Virus record (IMG/VR): IMGVR_UViG_2737471869_000024
Location: 1-25,955 of that record
Length of the DNA: 25,955 bases
Direction: 5' to 3' (one strand)
DNA from: a virus
Lineage: Duplodnaviria > Heunggongvirae > Uroviricota > Caudoviricetes
Positions 1 to 16,217 of the stretch are shown here, in pieces. Every line of letters begins with the position of its first letter. Positions within the stretch are counted from its first letter, which is position 1. The notes beneath the pieces are model-generated. The model did not search any database. It was not told the DNA's origin and saw only the letters and a program-made list of their open reading frames with translations. Made by a program: the position numbers and the translations under genes.

Positions 1-1842
1 ATGACAGTTACAACAAAGTTCAGAAATGACATTAATGGCCTAAGAGCTATAGCTGTTATAAGTGTTGTTTTGTTTCATTTTTCATCTTCTATAATTCCAG
101 GCGGATTTATTGGTGTAGACGTGTTTTTCGTCATATCTGGATACTTGATGACATCAATTATATTCAGAGGGATAGAATCTAATTCTTTTTCGGTTATTGA
201 CTTCCTGAAAGCAAGGGCGAGACGTATAGTTCCTGCTCTCGTTGCAGTTGTATTCCTTACACTGATTATTGGTTATATGTTCTTTGAGCCTATGACATTA
301 CAGATCATAGGAAAACATTCTGCGGCAAGTCTAACATTTATTTCCAATATTATTTATCAGTCTGAATCAGGTTATTTTGATGATACATCAAAGCAAAAAT
401 TTTTACTGCATACATGGTCGCTATCAGTTGAATGGCAATTCTATATAATTTACCCGATAGTGTTACTTGCACTGTCAAAGATATTGTCAATAAAAAATCT
501 TAAAATATTTGTTGTTGCGATTGCTGTTGTTTCTTTTGCATGGTGCATTTACATAACCAGAACTGATCCCGTGTCATCATACTTCAGCATCGCATCAAGA
601 GGTTGGGAAATGATGCTGGGAGGCATTGCTTTTCTGTTCCCGTTTAAAGGTAGCGATAAATCAAGACGAGTTTTGGAATCAGCAGGGCTAATATTGATCG
701 CGCTGTCTCTCGCGTTCATGAGCGAAAGCTTGGCGTGGCCTGGCTACATTGCGTTTATTCCAGTATTCGGGGCCTATATCTGCATTCTTGCTGACAATAA
801 AAGAACCATTCTTTCTGGTAAGATCATTGGAAAGCTTGGGCTCTGGTCCTATTCAATATACTTGATCCACTGGCCGGTAATCGTCTTTTGCGAGAAGACG
901 GGAATTGAGTTAAATATTTTCTGGTATCTGGCTGGTGTAGTGTCAGCCTCAGCACTACTTTATAGCCTTGTAGAGAAGCGTCGTGGTTATGGATGGGGAT
1001 TGCTTTTCTGTTATTGTGTATGTCTCGCAGCCGCTTTGTATGTCAATGTCGACGGGGTAAGTAGTCGCATTAAGAATCCTGATTACCATCTTAATAAAGA
1101 CCTGTTCCGCCGGGCTTACGAAGGACATTTATGGATGCAGCCTGGAGAGAATGTAGACTACTTCAACGCTACAGAAAAAGACTTTGACTACATCATACTT
1201 GGTGACAGCCATGCAAGACACTATTTCGCTTTCTTCAAACAAAGCGGTCTTAAAGTAGCATCGCTAGCTGCGGATGGTTGTAAAGTTACAAAGCATTTTA
1301 TGGGGCCGCTAAACTATTCTGAAAAACTCAGAAAGATTTGCGAAGGAAGATATAAGAAGGCCGTTGAATTCATTAATGCCCATCCTGGCAAGAAAGTCGT
1401 ATGGTTGCAAGCGTGGTATACTGGAAAGGTTGGAAACCCGCTAACGACTGACAATTCTTATAAAAATGATTTCATCAGTGAAATGAAATATTTTCTTGAT
1501 GATATTAAAGGCTCTAACAGCCAGATATATATTGTTGGTGATACCCAGGGAAGCAAGGAAATCATGTATCAATGCCTGGCATCACAAGACCTTCCTATTA
1601 ATAAATTATTCAGAAAATGCAATGAGTTTCAGGATTATATAGAGCCTGCAATGAATAGCAGATTTAAAATATTTGCTGAGCAATATCAAAAAGTTCATTT
1701 CGTTGACCCTAGCCCAGCAATATGCAGTGATGGCAAATGTAGAGTGGTTGATGGAGATATGCCTGTTTACACGGATAACTCTCATCTTACAAAGGTATGG
1801 TCAGTTAAGGTTGGTGAATATATCTTTAGCAAGATAAAGTAG
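1..1842 (+). CDS. O-antigen acyltransferase: N-terminal membrane acyltransferase-3 domain fused to C-terminal SGNH hydrolase domain (OafA/Oac-like lysogenic conversion enzyme)
   Basis: 613 aa ORF. The N-terminal ~350 aa are highly hydrophobic with multiple predicted TM helices and the acyltransferase-3 signature near the N-terminus (NGLRAIAVISVVLFHF). The C-terminal ~250 aa carry a GDSH block (ILGDSHARHY) and a distal D-x-x-H block (TDNSHLT), typical of SGNH hydrolases. The ATG is at window position 1, so no upstream context is visible and the start is unverified. A terminator hairpin follows directly. Confidence 0.8.
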   Translation: MTVTTKFRNDINGLRAIAVISVVLFHFSSSIIPGGFIGVDVFFVISGYLMTSIIFRGIESNSFSVIDFLKARARRIVPALVAVVFLTLIIGYMFFEPMTLQIIGKHSAASLTFISNIIYQSESGYFDDTSKQKFLLHTWSLSVEWQFYIIYPIVLLALSKILSIKNLKIFVVAIAVVSFAWCIYITRTDPVSSYFSIASRGWEMMLGGIAFLFPFKGSDKSRRVLESAGLILIALSLAFMSESLAWPGYIAFIPVFGAYICILADNKRTILSGKIIGKLGLWSYSIYLIHWPVIVFCEKTGIELNIFWYLAGVVSASALLYSLVEKRRGYGWGLLFCYCVCLAAALYVNVDGVSSRIKNPDYHLNKDLFRRAYEGHLWMQPGENVDYFNATEKDFDYIILGDSHARHYFAFFKQSGLKVASLAADGCKVTKHFMGPLNYSEKLRKICEGRYKKAVEFINAHPGKKVVWLQAWYTGKVGNPLTTDNSYKNDFISEMKYFLDDIKGSNSQIYIVGDTQGSKEIMYQCLASQDLPINKLFRKCNEFQDYIEPAMNSRFKIFAEQYQKVHFVDPSPAICSDGKCRVVDGDMPVYTDNSHLTKVWSVKVGEYIFSKIK

Positions 1843-1872: not shown

Positions 1873-3675
1873 TTATATCACCATATATCTGAAGCTTGCT
1901 CCGCCTGCAGCTGGAGAACCTGACTGCGTAGCAAGGACAAGACTTCCGTTTGATTGACTTAAAACATATGCATTTGCTGCTGCAGCTGAAGCATTTGCTG
2001 GGTGAATCACAACTTGTGAATAAGGTGTTATATTTTCATCAACTAGTGTTGCTGAAGCTACACCACTCAATCCATTGAATGACTTCATCACCATCTTTTC
2101 AGTTGCAGAAAGAAGGACGTTTCTTATTGTAAATGTACCTCCTCCAGTTGGGTTTAGCTTTGGAATGAGTGCACTTGTTACGGTTGTAAGATTGCAATTT
2201 GTCAGGACAAGATTATTTTGATAACTGGTAACCTGTGCAATACCTGAATTAACAACAGTGGCATTATTCACGGTGTTATCTGTAGCACCATCCGATTGGT
2301 TAACACCACTTTGTCCTGCAGCATTAATATAAGCTGAAAGAACTCTGGTATTTGCCGATCCTGCCGCAAAGTTAATACCGTTTTGCCCGCAAGTATTAAC
2401 ATAAACACTCTCAATTGTGGATCCTGTTGTTGGCAGTCCAGCATGTCCAAAGTTAATACCGTGGAAAAATTGCGTGTTGGTAGATATCAACTTTCCTGCC
2501 ATGCTCCAGCGGCAATCAAAACCAATGCCTGATGCTGATGCAAGATCCACAGATGCATAAAGCAAACGGTTATAATCACCACTAAATTGAATACCAGAAT
2601 AAGCGTCATCACCAGAAGCGCCTTGTGCATGCCCTAGTGCCGCAATACTTCTATTAGTTTTGTAAATATAAAACGCTTCATGCCCCCACGATTCAATCCG
2701 ATCAACGATAAACTTTGAGTAATGGCACTGATAGAAAAACAGGCAACCAGAGCCGTCATTGCGGATTCCATCTGGTGATGGTGCACTTATAAAAGTGCGA
2801 GGGTAGTAATGGTCATGGACATAATGAGCGTAAAAATCTACGTTCTGACACTCTGTCAGATAGACAAGATGGGTTCCAATCTGTCCTGATTGTCCTGCTT
2901 TATTACCATCAATCTCATTAATGTGAATTATTAGACCAGAGTTATTACCTGCTGCGTAAAGTAATCTGTCAAAGTCGACACATCCAGACGGTAATTTGAG
3001 CTTCCCCTTTACAATCACTTTTTTTGCTGAAGAAAGGTTGAGATTTTTTGCAACGAGAGTAAACCCTTCGGGAACAATCAGCATACCTGTATCGTCAATC
3101 ATCTTCTGAGCTGAGATTGATGATTCAACTTCGCTCACAGCTCCCCAATCTGCAACTGTAAGATTCTCTGCATTTTTTTCATGCTGAGTCCTTTTTACTG
3201 CTCCGGTATAAGGTTGAATAACAGGTATCATTGCATCTCCGTCGCTGATACCTGCACCAATCAAATCTGCAACAGTGTGACCAGGACAAAGACCTATTAA
3301 TGAGGCTCCATCATCACCAGACAACTCCTGTCTTAGCTGATCTGGATCATACTTCAACACGTTTGGATAGTTGAACTGCTGTGTACCATAAGCATCGTAC
3401 ACAGCCATAGAATGGCCTTGCACGGTAACGAATTTGGCAATCTGTCCGTTATATACAGGGTAACCAGCAGCGTTAATGATGATTGGTTGCGAAACAGGAA
3501 CGTGAGAGCCGTCTTCATTCTCCACATAAACCTGAATCTGGTTTTCAGGATTTACCGGGTCAGTGTCAATTTTACCGATATAAATTTTGCCATTGGCTAC
3601 GGCTTTAAAAGAACGCGCCATAGTGAAGAGTTGCGAAGGCATGCTTACCACAACATTTGCGGTGATATCTGTCAT
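1873..3675 (-). CDS. Tailspike protein (P22 gp9-type N-terminal head-binding domain fused to a different receptor-binding/O-antigen-cleaving beta-helix domain)
   Basis: 600 aa. The first ~110 residues ([46 protein letters not shown]...NVLKYDPDQ) closely match the P22 tailspike head-binding domain as I recall it. The remainder is Gly/Ser/Asn/Thr-rich and beta-helix-like but does not resemble the P22 receptor domain. GGAG RBS upstream. Last gene of the virion module. Confidence 0.9.
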
Positions 3676-3776: not shown

Positions 3777-4712
3777 TCAGTAGTTATGTACTGAAGGAGG
3801 TAATTCTTTATTCTTAAGTCTCATCCATGCGGAAAGATTCGTTGGTCCGTCTGGCTCATTGATATCAACATCTCGTGTGTGGTTTATTAAAACGTCTCTC
3901 GCCATTCCGATAACATACGAGAATTCATGACCGTAGTCGTAGCATCTGCCGGAATAGTTCGATTGAATTTGTTTTAGCGCCGGATACAGTTCGCGGAATA
4001 ATGCCTGTGAGCGGTTGGCATAATCCCATAACCATACAAGGCTGTTTGCTTCTTTTGCAGAAAGCTCGTTGGTTCTCTTCTCTTGTTTTCCAATGAACTC
4101 ACCTTCAAGTGGAACTCGAGCTGCAAGTGATAGTGCTTCGGTAAACTGCTCATCACTGATTTCTTTGTACGAACATCCAAAATGGGATTTTAGTGACGAC
4201 CACATGGTGATCATCGCCTTAGCCTGTTTTTCTTTTGGCAGAGACTGACCGCGACTCATGACGAGTTGTTTAATGGCTTCCTGCTGTTCAGTGGTGATTT
4301 TACCCGGCAACGCCTTTTTAGCTTTGCGTGGGTTAAATACATGACCTTTAGTCCAGTAGTCATGCAGCACGCTAAAGCATTCTTCCTGGTACTGAATCAG
4401 TTTATCACGGATGTCAGCACGAACTTTCTCAGGGTTGATGCTGAACAGCCATCCATTTAACTTCTTCAGCGGGATGCATAAAAGCTTACGTAACTTGCCA
4501 TCAGCAGCAACCATAGAGATATCTCTACAGTTGAATTTGTCCTTCATTTTACGCAACTTAACAGATTGACCAGTCCAGTCGATACCAATGTTTTCCACAA
4601 TTTGACGCATCGCTACATAAGTCACTCCGGCAGCCATAGCGGTTAAAATCTGCTGACCATTGAAAGGCACGTAAGAGGTGTTCACTGCTTCTAAAATTGC
4701 TATACTATTCAT
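3777..4712 (-). CDS. ant: Antirepressor Ant (immI region)
   Basis: The protein from the internal ATG at 4712 ([30 protein letters not shown]...) matches the P22 Ant N-terminus as I recall it. GGAG-type RBS upstream of that ATG. The supplied ORF extends 22 codons further upstream, which is probably not translated. Confidence 0.9.
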
Positions 4713-4780
4713 GTTGGTTTTTCTCCACGAATTTACCGACAACCGAAGCCCTGACTGTTCCAGCAGTTGGGGCTTCAACT

Positions 4781-4942
4781 TTACGCGCCAATGCGCCCTT
4801 CCTTCTTAAAGCTGTCCATTACTCTCTGATAAATCTCAGAGTTAACAGACCGACCATTCTCTTCCGCCACCTTGCGTACCAAATCCAATACTTCTTTAGG
4901 CCACCGCAAATTGAACTGCGGCATTTTTCTTGCGCCTTGCAT
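4781..4942 (-). CDS. arc: Arc repressor (ribbon-helix-helix)
   Basis: The 53-aa product from the ATG at 4942 ([53 protein letters not shown]) is near-identical to P22 Arc. GGAG lies 7 nt upstream. Confidence 0.88.
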
Positions 4943-5035
4943 ATTCCACTCCATTCCATTAAATGATAGCACCGTACTACTATTGAAAGCGTACTACTAC
5001 CGTTCTAGCATGTCAACAAATAACAGGAGAGCGAC
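4943..5035. promoter_or_regulatory. Divergent Pant/Pmnt control region with an Oarc-like operator and tandem direct repeats
   Basis: The 21-mer ATGATAGCACCGTACTACTAT (4963..4983) shares both arms (ATGATAG ... CTACTAT) with the P22 arc operator as I recall it. A perfect TTGACA -35 hexamer lies on the minus strand (5011..5016), and a TTGAAA -35-like hexamer on the plus strand (4983..4988). A 10-bp direct repeat CGTACTACTA occurs at 4973..4982 and 4990..4999. Confidence 0.45.
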
Positions 5036-5275
5036 GTGGCTAGAAACGATCCACAATTTAACGTAAGAATGCCAAGTGAAATCAAGCAGCAGCTTACTCA
5101 CATTGCGGCAACAAACAGGCGCTCTATCAATGCTGAAATCATAGCTGCAATACAGCTATGGATTAAGATTAACAGAGAAAAGGTCATACCATCGACATCT
5201 CAAGATCTCACAAAAACAGAGAAGGAAGCAATGGATATTGCAATTAGCGTACTTAAGAAGATTCGAGGCCAATAA
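5036..5275 (+). CDS. mnt: Mnt-like ribbon-helix-helix repressor (divergent variant)
   Basis: 79 aa with a GTG start preceded by AGGAGA. The N-terminus MARNDPQFNVRMPSEIKQQL resembles P22 Mnt (MARDDPHFNFRMP...), but the DNA-contacting beta-strand (His to Gln) and the whole C-terminal half differ. It is divergent from arc, as in P22 immI. Confidence 0.8.
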   Translation: MARNDPQFNVRMPSEIKQQLTHIAATNRRSINAEIIAAIQLWIKINREKVIPSTSQDLTKTEKEAMDIAISVLKKIRGQ

Positions 5276-5622
5276 TGAGCAGTAAGGAGCAATACTTAAA
5301 AGTTACTTTTGAGTCTTTTAGTAATTACTTGACTTCATTCAAAAAAACTTATGTATGCCCAATATGCAGCAATACAAACTGGACTCTTTTAGCACCGGAG
5401 CATCTTAAAAAAGATGATGGTGTTGAAGTTATAGGCCCATCCATACCAGGTAAAAGCTTGCCTAATAATCCTGTTAATCAAGATACTTATAGCAACGATA
5501 GTCTTAACATGGTAGCCATGCAATGCACCACTTGCGGTTTCTTCCACTTTTTTAGTTTAAACAAAGTTAGTGAAAATATCTCTTCTGGAAAATTCGTAAA
5601 GGGTGATGGAGATAATGTTTGA
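5275..5622 (+). CDS. Hypothetical Cys4 zinc-ribbon protein (cargo gene, translationally coupled to mnt)
   Basis: 115 aa. Its ATG overlaps the mnt TAA (TAATG), with GAGG 7 nt upstream. Two CxxC pairs (C28/C31, C84/C87). The region looks AT-rich compared with the flanking structural genes. No recognisable family. Confidence 0.6.
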   Translation: MSSKEQYLKVTFESFSNYLTSFKKTYVCPICSNTNWTLLAPEHLKKDDGVEVIGPSIPGKSLPNNPVNQDTYSNDSLNMVAMQCTTCGFFHFFSLNKVSENISSGKFVKGDGDNV

Positions 5623-6115
5623 CCAACATGTTCACAATAAATCACCTAGTATTTATGGAGATGCTCAAAGCCAACATGAAAACCTTGACTTTGACAAATC
5701 GTTATGGAGTTCAATAGAAAACGCTAAATATTCAGAGTATTACAGACCAACTGGCAGAAATCCGTCAAAGGAACCACAAATATTTAGCCTACAAGAAGAG
5801 CAACACAAAGAAGAAGGTCGTGATACCGTGAAACGTTTAGAGCTATACGGGGTTGCAGTTGCTATCATTGGTTCTATCGTTGCCGCCACATGGACGATTC
5901 GAGGCACTATAGATGATAAAGTTGAATCATCACGACAAGAGCTAACAGGAAACATCCAAACCAGTAAGGCAGAGATAATGGCTACTATCCAAAACAACCA
6001 ATCAGTATTACAGTCAAGGATTGATAACACTGATCAAAAATTAGACTCGACAAACCAATCTCTTTATAAGGTATTGGCTATATTAGAGTCTCAAAAAGAC
6101 AAACGTTCTCAATAG
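5606..6115 (+). CDS. Hypothetical single-pass membrane protein with C-terminal coiled-coil-like domain (cargo gene)
   Basis: About 166-170 aa. Possible starts are GTG 5603, ATG 5606 and ATG 5615, all overlapping the end of the upstream ORF. One strongly hydrophobic segment (LELYGVAVAIIGSIVAATWTI) is flanked by K/R. The C-terminal ~70 aa are Q/S/T/N-rich with heptad-like spacing. Confidence 0.6.
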   Translation: MEIMFDQHVHNKSPSIYGDAQSQHENLDFDKSLWSSIENAKYSEYYRPTGRNPSKEPQIFSLQEEQHKEEGRDTVKRLELYGVAVAIIGSIVAATWTIRGTIDDKVESSRQELTGNIQTSKAEIMATIQNNQSVLQSRIDNTDQKLDSTNQSLYKVLAILESQKDKRSQ

Positions 6116-6136
6116 TTTCTTGATTTATTACCTATA

Positions 6137-6171
6137 GCTGCATGATTGATGTCTGTTGAAAATCATGCAGC
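6137..6171 (+). repeat. Perfect 11-bp inverted repeat (GCTGCATGATT ... AATCATGCAGC) with 13-nt spacer in the intergenic gap
   Basis: Read directly from the sequence; lies between the second and third cargo ORFs, 25 bp upstream of the AAGGAG RBS of the third. No clear U-tract follows. Confidence 0.4.
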
Positions 6172-6195
6172 ATTGATAAATCTAAGGAGATCGGC

Positions 6196-6516
6196 ATGTA
6201 CATATCGCTCTCTACCATTTTTTTCATCTGCTTAGCTATTTGGCTTTTAAGAATATGGCAGGATTGCTCTGTCAGCCATGCTGCTGCGGTGAGAAATAAA
6301 AACGCCCTCATAAAAGAAGCTGAAAACGTTGTCTTATCAATGGATCACCTTTCATGGACCGAGATGACTACAGGGCAACAAGAGGTTTATGAGTGTGCGA
6401 TTGAGCGGTTAAGGCTGCTTAAATCGTACAAAAAGAACCACGCTCCCGACTCATTCCCATTCCTGAAAGAATGGCCGAGATGGTATGACCCGAAAAAAGC
6501 AACCATCAACCGCTAA
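6196..6516 (+). CDS. Hypothetical small membrane-anchored protein (cargo gene)
   Basis: 106 aa with a strong RBS (AAGGAG, 7 nt spacing). N-terminal hydrophobic segment MYISLSTIFFICLAIWLLRIW, either a signal anchor or a signal peptide (possible AxA-like site SHA-AAV). The stop codon lies 8 bp from the convergent gp16 stop. Confidence 0.6.
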   Translation: MYISLSTIFFICLAIWLLRIWQDCSVSHAAAVRNKNALIKEAENVVLSMDHLSWTEMTTGQQEVYECAIERLRLLKSYKKNHAPDSFPFLKEWPRWYDPKKATINR

Positions 6517-6524
6517 CCAACTTT

Positions 6525-8531
6525 TTACTGCTGGGCTTTCTCACTTGAAGCCTGAATTAGAGGTGTAAGAGTTTCAGATACCCGTCTGATCGCTCTATCA
6601 TAAGCAGTACTTCCTTTTGGCGTGTTTGCTAACTTTAGTAATGCGTTCCTCATCGCGCGTGACTCATAGCCCCTGCCAGCCATACCGATACCAGCTCCTA
6701 CTGCCGCAACTTTTGCAAACATTGGATTTGTAACAGACGCAAGAGCTGTTATCAGCGCTGCTGGACCAGCTACCATTTGCCCTGTTAGTGGGCTTGCGGC
6801 AGCAGTAGCTGCCTGTCTAGTGGAATCAAGATATTTCATTATCCCATCAAGCTGTTTCCCATGCTCTCCTCTGAAGAACGTCTCAGCCTGCTTCCGATTC
6901 CTTTTCATTTCATTAATAAACTTCTCAACGCTAAGCTTTCCTGAATCGCTTGTCGCCTTATCCATTGCACGCTGAACAAGTGCTGCTCTAGCATTTTGAC
7001 GCCCACTATCATCAAGCAATCGATAAAGTTGCGCCCTTTCCGCTGGGCTTTGGCTGAATACTAGTTTAGTGACATCTTCTGGCGTTGTTTTACCACTCTG
7101 AATAGCTTTTTGGACACGTGTATTGCTCATCATGTCGTTGAACTTTGCCCAAGAACGATCAACACGCGACATGTTTTGCGCTTCCTTCGCACCTAGTTTT
7201 GCGCCAACCGCTTTTTTCATGTCTGTTGTGTATGCGTTATAAACAGACTGCGCAGCTTTCTCCAGCGTATCTCTATCGACCTCGTCAGGTGCTGCCATAA
7301 AGCGCTTACGTAAGTTTGTACGGTTTTCTCTAGCTAATTGCAGGTTATTTGGACCGCTGGTGATGTCATTTCTAAACTGTTGAAGGACAGAAACAGCTGA
7401 GCGGTCTTGCGATACTCCTGGGCGAGTTAACTTGGAAATCTGCTCATCAATTGCTTTCACTGTTCCAGTGATGTCAACAGGAGTATCCCCCATCAAACTG
7501 ATGATCCTGTCGTACCGCTTGCCAGCAGCCTGAATAAATTGCTGCTGACCACGAGTAGCTGATTGGTAAAGTTGTGCGTCAGATATTCCACCAACATTAT
7601 CGCTAAATGTTCTAACTAAATCTTCCCTGGCCTTTTGCTGTGCATTTCTTATCCCACCTGTTCCGGCTATTGGGATTCGCTCAGCCATAGCTCGTGCTTG
7701 CTTACCAATATTTGTTCCCGGTTCCACAAGATCTGTTGTCATCAGTGGCAAGTTGTTCTGCTTGGCAAAGTCAATCTGAGCTTGTTTTTCAGGAGCAATC
7801 TTACCCATAGCAGAACGAGACACTGCGCTTGCGGTGTTTTCTACACCCTTCAGTACCCCACCAAGACCAGCAGAAATTGCAGTTTGAACTGGATTAACAT
7901 TCTCACCGCCAGCGATCTTAGTGGCACCCTGTAAAGCTAAATCAGTAGCGCCTGATTTTAGTGTTGCACCTACAACAGACGCAGCTCTACCTGCTGGAGT
8001 GAATGCAAGAGCATTTGCCAAGAATGACGTTATATCCTGCGGTGACAAACCAGGCTTGTTAAGTGCATATTCCCCTGAAGGAAGGGTGACTATGGAATTT
8101 CCCTTCTCATCCTTCCGGATTTTCCCGCCAATACTTTGCAGTATTTTCTCCTGTGAAGCGTCGGAACCAAATAGCTGCCCCAATCCAGCACGCAGCGCAT
8201 CAGTGCTTAAGCTATTAAGCTCTGGAGCAGACCCAACATTTTGCAGTCTCTCCATTTCTGGTGTCATTCGGCTTTCACCGGTAACGGCATCGCGCATTGC
8301 AGCACCTAAAACAGCCCCTTGCTCAGCAGAGCGATCTAGTCCTTCCTTCTGCTGAGTGGCAAGCTGTGCATATCCTGATGCAAGTGAGTTGTCTGCTGGC
8401 GATTGCTGAACACCTTGTTGTGTTGGTGCTGACTGACCAGCAAAATACTCATCAATGGCGGCGCCAATATCTTCGGTGCTCGTACCATCAGGAAAGGTAA
8501 ATGTCTTACCGTTTGCAGTAACTTTCATCAT
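6525..8531 (-). CDS. Ejection (internal/E) protein, P22 gp16 homolog
   Basis: 668 aa, last of the three ejection genes in conserved P22 order (7-20-16). Start overlaps the upstream gene stop. Confidence 0.8.
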
Positions 8532-9943
8532 TCCACCGTAAATTGAATGCCTGATTTTGAGGTATATGATCCAACCTGATTCCGTGGTTCTCCTGAAGGT
8601 GTCGAATCTTGTGCTGGCGCTGCGTCAGTATTCATTGACATATACCGCTTAACGGCACTCCCCAATGATTCACCTTTTTTAACATCCAACCCCAATATCT
8701 GACCGCCATTACGCGATTGTCCAGGGTTGCCATTCGCGCTCATCCACTCAGCTTTAAACTCATTAAACTGCGCGTTTCGTCGCTCAAGGTTTGCCATTGC
8801 ATCAAGCCATCTTGCGACCGTCTCAGGGTTATCCATGTCAGTTGGCGCACCCTGACGAACGATCTCAACGTCTTTATCCGTTGCTGGGCCGGGAGGTAGG
8901 AATTTAAGGACCTGACTGTTAACAAGGGCATTTTGGCGAATGCGCAAATCACGCAATGTTGTATCGCTTCCGGTAAGTTTTGCGAACATGTTCTGTGCGT
9001 TACCGAACAAACCTGTCGTTGGTTTTTCTGCTCTGAACTGTTGAGCAAGCGCACTCATAGAATTGGCTGAGTTTGATGATGCTGTAGCATTGTTTACAGC
9101 CGTCTCGATGCCTTTTTCCATGTTTACTGACAGCTTAGGTGCTTCGCTAATCAACTGCTGAGCCTTTTCCTGCGCTTGCTGCATCTTAAACCCGAACTCT
9201 TGCTGATCCAGAGCCAAGCGTTGTGCTGCGATATTGTGCCCAGTCATTGCTGACTGATAGGAAAGGTTTTGCCCTCTCGCCTGAAGTGCCTCGCCAGCCT
9301 GATTGCTGCGGATTGTCTCTGCCAGTCTGCCTCGGTCAATCTCACGACCAGCCATCTTGTCCTGAACAGCAAACGCCTTTTCTGGTCCAAGCGCACCGAG
9401 AGACATAGTAGTCAGCATGTGTGATAGCTGCTCTGGATTCTGGATACCTGTCTGAATCATCCAGTCAGCATTCGCCCCCACGCGATTTAACCTGTCCTTG
9501 TTGTCAGTAATGAATTTACTGTAGGCTTCCGGTCCCTGGGAAAGAGCGACGTTAGCCCTCATGGCTAAATCGCCCATATCGTTGCGTTGCTGCTCATTAA
9601 GACCGGAAAACGCCTGTTGTGCCTGTGCAACAAACGCTGGATTTTCCTGGGCAAACTTAAATAGTCCAGATGGATCACCAGAAGCCCATGCATCAGCGTG
9701 AACCTTATTGAACGCACTAATAGCTTTCTGTTGCTGTTCCTGATTGTAAATATCAGCAACTCCAGCCAGACCACGTAACGCGGTCAGACCAATGTTATTT
9801 GCACCTGAGCGAGCCAGTTCATTGTTTTCGCGGATCAGACCAAGCGTTGCGTTAATGTCGCTTGCCTTTGGCGCATTCTCATTTTGCGTACCGATGCCAG
9901 CCAGAAAACCACCAGAATTAATACCCTGTTGCCACGTAGCCAT
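8528..9943 (-). CDS. Ejection protein, P22 gp20 homolog
   Basis: 471 aa, the size I recall for P22 gp20. Synteny between gp7 and gp16. Confidence 0.8.
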
Positions 9944-9953
9944 TGATTACCCC

Positions 9954-10646
9954 TTAAAACAACGAGCCAAGCAGACCAAGACCGCCGCCGATCGCAGCCC
10001 CCCACGGAGTTGATGAACCAATTAATTTCGCAAGTCCAGCCCCAGCAATAGCACCAGACGCACCTCCGCCAATAGCAGATTGCATTGCTGATGGTCTGTT
10101 GGCATTTGCCGCTGCAAGAGCCGCACTTTGCTGCGAAATCTGACTCATGTTGTTGGCATATGTCTGCCCTGCGTTTGCCTGACCTTGCAGAGCACCAAGC
10201 CCAACGTTTGCCAGATTCTGGTAGTTGTTCATCTGACCAGACAGCCACTGCTGACCAAGCGTTGGTGCGATTGTTGCTAACTGATTACCGGTTGCAGTGG
10301 AACCCAATCCACCTGTTGCTTCCGCTGCCGCCAGACTCTGATAGCGAGCCTGACCAGCAAGATCTTTGTACTGCTGAGAGTTGTAATACTGGTTAAGTGC
10401 CTGACCTTGCCCTTCCAGAGACGATAAGTTCTCGAGGCTGCCGACATACTTATCAGCCAGAGGAGTAAACGGCTTCAGGTTGTTCATGATGGTGTTGAAC
10501 TGCTGATTTTGCAGGTTTGCTGCATACTTCTGAGCTTCTGCTGCATACTTTGCGCTTTTATCAGAGCTGCCACCTTTCCCGCCTTTTTCATGGCACCAAG
10601 GTTCCTCGCCGCGCAGTTTTCTGCCCAGCTTAAATGCATATAACAT
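9954..10646 (-). CDS. Ejection protein, P22 gp7 homolog
   Basis: 230 aa with a Gly/Ala-rich hydrophobic C-terminus. Synteny after gp14. Confidence 0.78.
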   Translation of the reverse strand: MLYAFKLGRKLRGEEPWCHEKGGKGGSSDKSAKYAAEAQKYAANLQNQQFNTIMNNLKPFTPLADKYVGSLENLSSLEGQGQALNQYYNSQQYKDLAGQARYQSLAAAEATGGLGSTATGNQLATIAPTLGQQWLSGQMNNYQNLANVGLGALQGQANAGQTYANNMSQISQQSAALAAANANRPSAMQSAIGGGASGAIAGAGLAKLIGSSTPWGAAIGGGLGLLGSLF

Positions 10647-14051: not shown

Positions 14052-15305
14052 TTACTGCCCGGCAATAACGATGCCCGTATATTCAGGAACAAGTACAGAG
14101 CAACCGTACAGAGTGGTGAAACGAGCAGTGGTTACGCCTTTGATGTGGTCGAAGGCGTAAGACATGATCAGCGTAGCGCCCTGCTCGGTGGTTGCTGTCA
14201 TTACCTGTGGACCCTGACCAGTCGGGAACGCCAGTTTTCCGTACATCAGTTCAACAGAACCATCAGCCCAGAACAGGTTAGCCGGTGCTGCATTTTTGTT
14301 GAGAATGGTAATTGCTGCACCATTTGCCGCGTTAGCATCAACGTTTGCATATGGACGGCTGGCAACATCTGCGTTGTCAGGCGGCAGAATTTTCGGGGAG
14401 ATAGTTACTGTCGTTCCGCTTACTGCCAGAACGCGGAATACCTGCGGCTGCCCGGTGGTGTCTTTGGTGATCTGGTGTACAGAATTCACGCCAGCAATGG
14501 TGAACGCATCGCCAACCTGCAAACCAGATGCAGATACCGTAATGGTCCCCTGTCGGTTATCCACTGGCATATCGTTGGCATCTTTCGCTTCAACCTTGTG
14601 CGCAGGTTCAGCCGCCAGCGTCAGGGAAGTTGCTGTACCTTTCGGAACACGACCAGAAATATCGGTCTTGTAGCTATCGAAGGACGCAACCGGAGGGATC
14701 TGCGCTTTTTCGTATGCTGTCAGGGTTGCGCCCTGAGCATAGGCACGGTGACCAAGCTCGCCAGCAAGGTCTTTGTAGTTGAAGGGGTTCCAGAAAGAGC
14801 GACGGTTGATACCCTGAGGTACACCAATCGCCGTCATGGTGGCATCAATATCTGCCGCACCATTCCACAAGGCAAGGCCCCGTGAGCCATTTTCTGAGGC
14901 AGGAATTGCGACCACGTTAGTAGCACGCTGCGTAACCATGGAAATCAGGTCAGAGTCAATCTGTGCAGCAAGGCGCATACCTGCGGCGCGACCAGCTTCA
15001 GTTTTATGTTCCGGGTCACGCATTTCACGCGCATCCAGAGTGTACAGAATGTTTTTCGGCTCCTTGAACACAGAAGGAACAAGGCGCTGAACCAGTGCTG
15101 TTGGCGTTTTGCTGCTGAGGTCGAGGCCTTCCTCAATATTCATGTGGTAATGCTGCGGACGATACAGAACATCACCTGCTCGCTGCATTGCTGTATCACC
15201 GGGACGGAATTTTTTAGCGTTACGGGAAACTACGCAGGCGGCCTCAAAGCCTTCAACGTAGTTTTCGAACATGATTTCAAGGTCTTTTGCTAATTGGTTA
15301 GCCAT
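14052..15305 (-). CDS. Major capsid (coat) protein, P22 gp5-like
   Basis: 417 aa in the expected position after the scaffold gene; size and position fit a P22-type coat. Followed by a terminator hairpin. Confidence 0.88.
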   Translation of the reverse strand: MANQLAKDLEIMFENYVEGFEAACVVSRNAKKFRPGDTAMQRAGDVLYRPQHYHMNIEEGLDLSSKTPTALVQRLVPSVFKEPKNILYTLDAREMRDPEHKTEAGRAAGMRLAAQIDSDLISMVTQRATNVVAIPASENGSRGLALWNGAADIDATMTAIGVPQGINRRSFWNPFNYKDLAGELGHRAYAQGATLTAYEKAQIPPVASFDSYKTDISGRVPKGTATSLTLAAEPAHKVEAKDANDMPVDNRQGTITVSASGLQVGDAFTIAGVNSVHQITKDTTGQPQVFRVLAVSGTTVTISPKILPPDNADVASRPYANVDANAANGAAITILNKNAAPANLFWADGSVELMYGKLAFPTGQGPQVMTATTEQGATLIMSYAFDHIKGVTTARFTTLYGCSVLVPEYTGIVIAGQ

Positions 15306-15323
15306 GCTTAATGCTCCGATAGG

Positions 15324-16217
15324 TTATTTTTTTGCCTTTTTAGCGGCGAAATACGGCGTCCAGTCACCAGTTTCCAGCGCCTTGGCTTTCAATTTGTCGA
15401 TGTTGTTGATTACTGCGCCGTTGCTCCCCTTAACTGTCGGGGTTGTGGCTGCCGTGGTTTTTGCTTTTGGCATGATTCTGGCCTTCGATTCGATACGTTC
15501 CAGCAGACGACCAATTGCTACGGGGTTGGTAGCTTCTGCCAGTTGCTTGCGCAGTTCAGCGTTGCGACCGAGTGCCAGAACAACGATTTCCGGCTTCTCT
15601 GACTCAAACAGGATCGCGTTTTGTGTCTCGATGGGGATTTCCTCGAGTACGGCCTGCTCAGCTTCCTGATAGCCAGGAACTTTGAGAGCCTTAACACGTT
15701 GCTGATATTTGGATAATCGCTCTTGATAGGCAGCCTGAAGCTCCTGCTCCTTCTGCTTGCGAGCCATCTCCTGTTGCTGGTACTTGCCGTTATCCTCTGC
15801 CCACTTAGCCATGCGTTGCTGGTAGATTTCTTCATCGAAACCGATGTCCTCATCGTCCAGTTTTGGCATTCGCGGTGGTTGAGTAATTACCGGCTGCTGC
15901 TCGACGGGTTTCTGAGACTGACGCATCAGCTCTTTCAGCTCGCGGTCTTTCTCTTTAATCGTCTTGCGCAGGTGTTTTACCAGTCCATGCTCTGCGCCAT
16001 CTTCGCTGGTTGGCGAATCCAGCTTTTCGTCACCAAAGTAGAATTCCTGTTCTGATTCGTCGTCATCAGTTTCAGTAGCTTCCTCTGCATCATTGCCGGA
16101 GGACTCACTGCCATCTTCTGTTTCGACTTCTTCAGCCAGTTCGACATCATCAGGAATCTGCTCTGACGCGTCGGTTTCGATTTCAACTTCTGGTGTGTTT
16201 TCTGCCATCTGGTCCAT
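15324..16217 (-). CDS. Scaffolding protein (P22 gp8-like)
   Basis: 297 aa, highly acidic N-terminus, charged helical coiled-coil-like composition, located between portal and coat. Confidence 0.85.
   Translation of the reverse strand: MDQMAENTPEVEIETDASEQIPDDVELAEEVETEDGSESSGNDAEEATETDDDESEQEFYFGDEKLDSPTSEDGAEHGLVKHLRKTIKEKDRELKELMRQSQKPVEQQPVITQPPRMPKLDDEDIGFDEEIYQQRMAKWAEDNGKYQQQEMARKQKEQELQAAYQERLSKYQQRVKALKVPGYQEAEQAVLEEIPIETQNAILFESEKPEIVVLALGRNAELRKQLAEATNPVAIGRLLERIESKARIMPKAKTTAATTPTVKGSNGAVINNIDKLKAKALETGDWTPYFAAKKAKK

Follow-up and report, generated by a model that had tools for sequence, protein, structure and literature searches.

Among the closest described counterparts of the locus reported here are the superinfection exclusion protein SieA of phage P22 and an antisense RNA of phage BTP1. 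The sieA gene is present in 22 of 66 sequenced P22-like phages, and mutations that escape SieA fall in the C-terminal regions of gp16 and gp20 (PMC10883804). In BTP1, 'self' phage is excluded by STnc6030, a lysogen-expressed RNA running antisense across the 3′ end of the gene-16 homologue, with escape single-nucleotide polymorphisms lying within 36 bp at that same end (PMC7067206). Here we consider g3, a small gene in a 26-kb stretch of a P22-like (Lederbergvirus) prophage (IMG/VR record IMGVR_UViG_2737471869_000024, positions 1 to 25,955; hereafter the window, meaning the whole stretch analysed). We tentatively suggest that g3 encodes a lysogen-expressed, membrane-anchored exclusion factor, which would be an analogue of SieA by position and function and not its homologue.

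The part of the genome that holds g3 and the two genes before it, g1 and g2, was named the "ant moron" by Villafane et al.; it houses non-morphogenetic genes and is in rapid genetic flux (PMC2629481). P22 carries mnt-orf59a-terminator-PsieA-sieA in this place, convergent with gene 16, and the window carries mnt-g1-g2-hairpin-g3, likewise convergent. The sieA and g3 genes share a slot, each closing the mnt-side arm of the ant moron. In P22, mnt is the lysogen-expressed maintenance repressor of immI, and the mnt-side slot, like the cI-adjacent slot of lambdoid phages, is a classic site of lysogen-expressed exclusion genes. Members of the g3 family are found in both, and it is mainly from this combination of slots that we infer expression from the prophage. 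The features on which the argument turns are as follows:

6196-6516 (+): g3 coding sequence, 106 aa, phrog_10450, from the open reading frame (ORF) and its translation
6199-6258 (+): codons 2-21 of g3, a single hydrophobic transmembrane (TM) segment (YISLSTIFFICLAIWLLRIW); the prediction is of an anchor that stays uncleaved, N-terminus out and C-terminus in (N-out/C-in)
6259-6513 (+): C-terminal domain of g3, ~85 aa, comprising a juxtamembrane helix, helix 59-77 and an extended Trp/Pro-rich tail
6280-6288 (+): Ala29-Ala30-Ala31, the proposed AxA cleavage site, probably unused
6525-8531 (−): gene 16 homologue, ejection/injection protein, 668 aa; PF26808 (Phage_P22_gp16) matched in homologous loci
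6178-8531: mosaic unit of ribosome-binding site (RBS), g3 and gene 16, with its left boundary at ~6178, as seen in E. coli genomes without g1-g2

Placement and conservation of g3

Placement was compared across 34 P22-like loci with a family member, drawn from the window, contig look-ups (L003-L005, L007, L008 and L035-L037) and 23 IMG/VR loci. In 33 of the 34, spanning 37-100% protein identity and including the window, g3 lies tail-to-tail with gene 16, between that gene and the tailspike gene; the exception to this abutment, L007, is a decayed prophage remnant. The stop codons of g3 and gene 16 are -11 to +17 nt apart in the 14 loci measured, and 8 nt apart in the window. On its other side g3 meets at least nine different contexts, among them g1 and g2 in six loci, a divergent 121-aa gene likewise in six, mnt alone in L005, with a canonical terminator in between, and a Rap1a-like gene in L036. 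The DNA between gene 16 and the tailspike gene differs widely among loci, in the presence/absence pattern expected of a moron.

The same boundary is seen in complete E. coli genomes, where g3 is present in 57 of 5,426 (about 1%), the listed carriers being isolates from human, cattle, pig and food. The mnt-g1-g2-g3 block is whole in 41 of these 57 carriers; in the remaining 16, similarity starts at query position 1142/1143, equivalent to position 6177/6178 of the window and ~18 nt before the ATG. Further to that, wherever an E. coli genome had the 3′ end of the window's gene-16 allele (57 genomes), g3 was present too, whatever DNA lay upstream. The g1-g2 pair was never seen without g3, whereas g3 often occurs without the pair, and g2 is known only from this arrangement. 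Judged from these boundaries, the unit that moves is the RBS with g3 and gene 16, and g3 is independent of g1-g2. The original prediction had described g3 as the third cargo gene of a cassette, a view contradicted by the variety of upstream contexts, the abutment to gene 16 in 33/34 loci and the 16 carriers that lack the block.

Other parts of that prediction hold in the sequence, namely the ORF itself, the 80-bp gap before it, a perfect inverted repeat in that gap and an AAGGAG motif. The product of 106 aa begins with ATG, six nt beyond an AAGGAG Shine-Dalgarno (SD) sequence at 6184-6189 (+), agreeing with the claim of a separate gene with a strong RBS of its own. A motif of the TAAGGAG(G)/AGGAGG type is retained in nearly all homologous loci although their upstream DNA is unrelated; L015 and L016 carry TAAAGAGG at this position, and in L007, L008 and L036 the motif is weak or absent. 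The relatives mostly begin with GTG and not ATG, behind a similar TAAGGAG(G) motif. Between g3 and its L022 counterpart, synonymous differences amount to 13.6% and non-synonymous ones to 0%, and comparison with relatives at 65-66% identity gives a dN/dS of about 0.1, with synonymous sites near saturation. We conclude, from a dN/dS of about 0-0.1, a full-length match to phrog_10450 and an RBS retained in most unrelated contexts, that g3 is a genuine gene under strong purifying selection.

A 59-aa minus-strand ORF at 6132-6311 was considered as a gene and rejected, as it runs into the variable DNA to the left of the ~6178 boundary and could not be conserved as a unit, and as the substitution pattern agrees with the plus-strand frame instead. 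The end of the SD sequence and the start codon are also spanned by a 15-nt imperfect palindrome at 6187-6212 (GAGATCGGCATGTAC / GTACATATCGCTCTC), which is not kept in loci with a GTG start.

All 98 positions of the phrog_10450 profile are matched by residues 1-103 of g3 (E = 3.2e-52). This is a tiny, compact and conserved family of phage proteins that carries no functional annotation. Searches of Pfam, NCBIfam, PADLOC and PDB sequences, with the single protein as well as the family alignment, returned chance-level matches only. A word-indexed search of 5.8 billion proteins gave 14 clusters, and an exhaustive search with the family profile, against 1.84 billion representatives clustered at 50% identity, gave 13 matches, of which 12 are genuine. 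The remaining one, P0023 (676 aa, eight matched stretches), is leucine-rich-repeat-like and otherwise unlike the family, and was discarded as a repeat-inflated false positive. Scanning of genome contigs with family patterns confirmed no loci; the broader alignment was too divergent for such scanning. High-identity copies of g3 occur in only 2 phages of the phage collection. The region around g3 is 99.8% identical to Escherichia phages N7 and HZ41. Conservation in the C-terminal domain is concentrated in the motifs KN-LI-EA, SW-EM, CA-ERL-L-SYKKNHAP and WP-W. His28 and Cys67 are near-invariant in the family alignment (A3), and both are swapped in P0018 (Tyr/Thr) and P0020 (Lys/Ile), which hints that these two residues may work as a pair.

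Three distant family members (mEp043_049, P0021 and P0019, 29-37% identical) are located in lambdoid phages, where they start 3-14 nt after a Peptidase_S24 cI repressor gene, with the N gene further downstream. Such a position implies co-transcription with the repressor in lysogens. The location matches that of rexAB in lambda. In PHROG and PADLOC scans, RexA and RexB showed no similarity to g3; rexAB is a two-gene system, in which RexB is polytopic, whereas g3 consists of one small gene.

Next to cI, lambdoid phages keep abortive systems of the Rex type and not entry blockers, and this supports another reading, according to which g3 encodes a lysogen-expressed membrane protein that does not block DNA entry and acts, for example, as an effector of the abortive-infection or toxin-like kind, or by modulating a membrane protein of the host. 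The diversity of ant moron cargo, exemplified by the Rap1a-like type VI secretion system (T6SS) immunity gene of L036, and the presence in the window of a conversion gene for O-antigen acetylation are in line with it. This is a serious rival, though in our view somewhat unlikely. Nothing specific speaks against it; g3 matches no known abortive-infection, toxin-antitoxin or defence model, and the near-invariant abutment with gene 16, over 37-100% identity, would be left to linkage alone.

Membrane segment and topology

A role in exclusion at the inner membrane would depend on how g3 is anchored. Its hydrophobic stretch extends from residue 2 to residues 18-21 (mean Kyte-Doolittle 2.27 over 17 residues) and, as the original prediction had it, no positively charged n-region comes first; there is no charge of any kind ahead of the segment. 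The same is true of 13 of the 14 family members, which have neither Lys/Arg nor Asp/Glu before it. The 15 residues past the segment contain 2-6 Lys/Arg against 0-2 Asp/Glu in 14/14 members, the basic residues exceeding the acidic ones in 13 and equalling them in one.

The Ala-Ala-Ala triplet comes 8-11 residues after the end of the hydrophobic core and behind R19 and D23. Relatives do not conserve it: where it aligns, they read HAENI, HRAAV, HKLAV or KILAI. AlphaFold2, run on a seven-sequence alignment (mean pLDDT 86.9), predicts an unbroken helix at 5-48 and another at 59-77, after which comes an extended tail rich in Trp and Pro. The only conserved Cys is C67, which leaves no disulfide pair.

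Read with the positive-inside rule, the charge pattern of the family, together with the unconserved AxA and the continuous predicted helix, leads us to prefer an anchor that stays uncleaved, its N-terminus outside and its C-terminal domain cytoplasmic. It had been claimed that this domain could be exported or membrane-tethered. Association with the membrane is retained here, while export is improbable in view of the charge pattern, the unconserved AxA and the helix predicted to run from 5 to 48.

The opposite orientation, in which g3 would be a type II signal anchor (N-in/C-out) holding its helical domain in the periplasm, potentially within reach of the gp20/gp16 conduit or of the cell-wall machinery, seems unlikely to us. 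It draws some support from the brevity of the N-terminal tail (1-2 residues only), which makes the charge rule lean on the C-terminal flank, from the Lys at position 2 of P0018, and from the proposed targets of SieA, which include periplasmic gp20 (PMC10883804). Such an orientation is at odds with the absence of positive charge before the TM segment in 13/14 members and with the 2-6 Lys/Arg that follow it in all of them; a basic domain with one conserved unpaired Cys would also be atypical for the periplasm.

Likely transcription of g3, and its immI neighbourhood

The late genes of the window form an operon on the minus strand, with terminase, portal, scaffold, coat and tail genes, ejection genes 7, 20 and 16 and then the tailspike gene, and between gene 16 and the tailspike gene lies a full P22-type immI region (arc, mnt, ant and sar RNA). 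On the plus strand mnt is followed by three genes, g1, g2 and g3. The elements of this neighbourhood are:

1873-3675 (−): tailspike gene
3777-4778 (−): ant
4713-4780 (+): sar antisense RNA over the arc/ant junction (Rfam RF00262, 90.6 bits, E = 3e-19)
4781-4972 (−): arc
4983-5011 (+): Pmnt-like promoter, TTGAAA-17-TAGCAT, positioned as Pmnt of P22
5036-5275 (+): mnt-like Arc-family repressor gene, first of the rightward operon (PF03869, E = 5e-13; N7 annotation)
5275-5622 (+): g1, phrog_4293, a 115-aa protein with two CxxC motifs; mnt stop and g1 start overlap
about 5606-6115 (+): g2, 166-170 aa, central hydrophobic segment and coiled-coil-like tail, phrog_24865; overlaps the end of g1
6137-6147 and 6161-6171: the two 11-bp arms of a perfect inverted repeat, separated by a 13-nt loop and belonging to the g1-g2 module
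6116-6190 (+): the whole gap as one long imperfect hairpin whose base would pair with the SD (-25.6 kcal/mol, z = -4.9)

Given the sar RNA, the immI region of the window appears complete and P22-like. The stop and start codons of mnt, g1 and g2 overlap, whereas g3 stands apart behind the 80-bp gap (6116-6195, the upstream ORF ending at 6115), and to that extent its separation from the upstream pair, as originally described, is real. The Pmnt-like site is the only promoter-like site upstream of g3 on the plus strand, and the most economical reading of this arrangement is that g3 would be transcribed by read-through from Pmnt.

Chance does not account for the inverted repeat in the gap. The 26-kb window contains two perfect 11-bp repeats, compared with 0.25 expected in shuffles, and the hairpin core in the gap has an energy of -16.9 kcal/mol (z = -4.0). 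Its restriction to loci carrying g1-g2 indicates that it belongs to the upstream module and not to g3. This, and the failure to find a promoter nearby, runs counter to the idea that the repeat signals independent regulation of g3. Nor is it a canonical intrinsic terminator: the terminator scan did not call it, the loop is long (13 nt), and the 3′ tail of the hairpin reads AUUGAUAAAUCU on the plus strand and UAUAGGUAAUAA on the minus strand, with no U-tract on either. True terminators, for comparison, are found before g3 in L005 and after orf59a in P22. If read-through from Pmnt holds, the hairpin would have one of three roles, in weak attenuation, in processing or in stabilisation. The other perfect 11-bp repeat, at 1845-1870 (4-nt loop), lies between the acetyltransferase gene and the tailspike gene and is probably a bidirectional terminator.

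Masking of the SD by the larger gap hairpin, as a form of translational coupling, was considered and set aside. Shuffles of the left flank matched its energy in 122 of 2000 trials and left the SD paired in 49% of cases; all copies of the gap hairpin are identical. Outside the core repeat, the folding of the gap has no significance of its own, and an Rfam match to mir-2013 that covers the gap, at 24.9 bits where the gathering score is 70, reflects hairpin shape only. In several other loci (among them L003, L011, L022, L025, L029 and L030), a conserved TGgTATCCT element is present 28-36 nt before the start of the g3 homologue, directly ahead of the RBS, in upstream DNA that is otherwise unrelated. 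This element resembles an extended -10 and could be such a promoter; it is absent from the window copy.

There is no terminator-like site on the plus strand within 6400-10000, from which it follows that the g3 transcript probably runs antisense into gene 16. BTP1 STnc6030 offers a parallel, in that lysogen-side transcription (predicted in the case of g3) meets a gene-16 homologue head-on and reads its 3′ end in antisense. The transcript could then be partly or wholly the active product, as with STnc6030 (PMC7067206). The stop codons lying within -11 to +17 nt of each other in every locus measured, and the co-occurrence of g3 with this gene-16 allele in 57/57 genomes, would both suit such a role. 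Nevertheless, we hold it to be distinctly unlikely. Strong purifying selection on the protein sequence, with synonymous sites saturated, shows that the protein itself matters, in which case an antisense effect would add to the protein's function and not replace it, and the cI-linked relatives face no gene 16 at all. The likeness to BTP1 has further limits, since STnc6030 is described as non-coding while g3 is clearly protein-coding, no small membrane ORF was found under STnc6030, and in BTP1 no ant moron separates gene 16 from the tailspike gene.

Several observations were made on neighbouring genes. The g1 product is described as Zn-ribbon-like, and comparison of g2 with SieA gave nothing to support its being a SieA relative. 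In L004 (2196-2886), the g3 homologue is preceded by a second, barely similar pair, made up of a phrog_4293 protein and an XhlA/holin-like tail-anchored protein. A Rap1a-family gene (PF18602, T6SS immunity-like) sits between mnt and the g3 homologue in L036 (4641-4988) and L037 (971-1318), an orphan T6SS immunity-type gene thus being carried by a prophage within the ant moron. L003, an E. coli P22-like prophage, has an HNH/NUMOD4 homing-endonuclease-like gene (15195-15779) that appears to split its homologue of gene 10 (Phage_stabilise). In E. coli 0H24 and 0H26 (NZ_CP081778 and NZ_CP081786), the prophage region is found as a separate 39,448-bp record besides the chromosomal match, which suggests that these assemblies contain an excised or extrachromosomal prophage copy. 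At 1-1842 (+), converging on the tailspike gene, the window encodes a 613-aa AT3 acyltransferase-SGNH fusion; this is an Oac-like O-antigen acetyltransferase and a lysogenic conversion gene.

Comparison with exclusion systems and proposed function

We suggest that g3 would be a small single-pass inner-membrane protein with a basic, helical domain of ~85 residues on what is predicted to be the cytoplasmic side. In a subset of P22-like prophages, it is the gene-16-proximal gene that stays fixed while the rest of the ant moron varies. It would most likely be transcribed in the lysogen from the mnt promoter, reading through the gap hairpin, and translated from its own RBS. The protein may then protect the lysogen against superinfecting phages, probably by blocking DNA entry at the inner membrane.

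The proposed similarity to SieA is one of slot and of general type. Both are small membrane proteins with a conserved aromatic/Pro-rich motif predicted to be cytoplasmic (for the SieA motif, see PMC10883804). Type-A sieA is absent from all g3 loci. The two belong to different families (phrog_7745 for SieA, phrog_10450 for g3), and the SieA motif FxRYPxEAxxFNK is absent from the g3 family alignment. SieA has 162-164 aa, whereas g3 has 106, and beyond its TM segment it consists of a soluble helical domain. In P22, sieA has its own annotated promoter, PsieA, behind a terminator, and none was found for g3 of the window. The g3 family, unlike SieA in this comparison, is also seen next to cI in lambdoid phages.

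HK97 gp15, lactococcal Sie2009 and T4 Imm also follow a general pattern in which a moron or lysogeny module encodes a short protein anchored in the membrane by its N-terminus (references in PMC10883804). Proteins of this type protect the lysogen at the step of DNA entry. No match to g3 in sequence or fold was found.

Several points weigh against an exclusion factor of the SieA kind. An alignment of P22 SieA with family alignment A3 by hhalign gave a probability of 0.8%, which indicates no homology, and g3 has one predicted TM segment, compared with three in SieA and four in its types B and C (PMC10883804). No PADLOC defence model and no PHROG annotated as superinfection exclusion is matched by g3. 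Neither a promoter-finding tool nor our own scan found a sigma-70-like promoter for g3 in the gap or in the 220 bp upstream. The linkage to gene 16 can be explained by adjacency alone, and the N-out/C-in topology comes from the positive-inside rule and a structural model. Finally, the cI-linked relatives belong to lambdoid phages, of which at least mEp043 is an Aguilavirus and not P22-like, and with relatives outside the P22-like phages a mechanism specific to gp16/gp20 cannot hold family-wide.

As for cleavage after the AxA to release a soluble periplasmic protein of ~75 residues, the hydrophobic N-terminus proposed in the original prediction and an Ala-Ala-Ala at 29-31 do exist, but use of the site as a Sec signal peptide is very improbable, because a positively charged n-region is missing from the family, R19, D23 and 8-11 residues part the core from the site, several relatives have no AxA at the aligned position, and the continuous predicted helix crosses it.

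Returning to the proposed exclusion factor, a broader claim may be made for the family, which we consider possible but doubtful. The phrog_10450 family could be an unrecognised class of prophage superinfection exclusion proteins, single-pass and N-out/C-in at the inner membrane, that replaces SieA in the gene-16-proximal slot of P22-like prophages and, in some lambdoid phages, fills the rexAB slot. It might be co-inherited with its gene-16 allele by recognising the C-terminal part of the ejection protein, through an antisense transcript in the manner of STnc6030, or by both.

Taken by itself, g3 is an ordinary-looking hypothetical gene from an unannotated family, and what sets it apart is a strikingly constant placement. 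The family occurs in just two places, both of them classic lysogen-expressed positions. Only about a third of P22-like phages carry sieA (PMC10883804), and the g3 family would be one occupant of the slot in phages that do not. Should g3 do something other than exclude phages, it would still be worth including in a screen of prophage accessory genes, as a candidate that is cheap and well defined. If it does block infection, it would represent a second, non-homologous solution to the problem solved by SieA, and would provide a small and tractable probe of the gp16/gp20 DNA-delivery conduit at the inner membrane.

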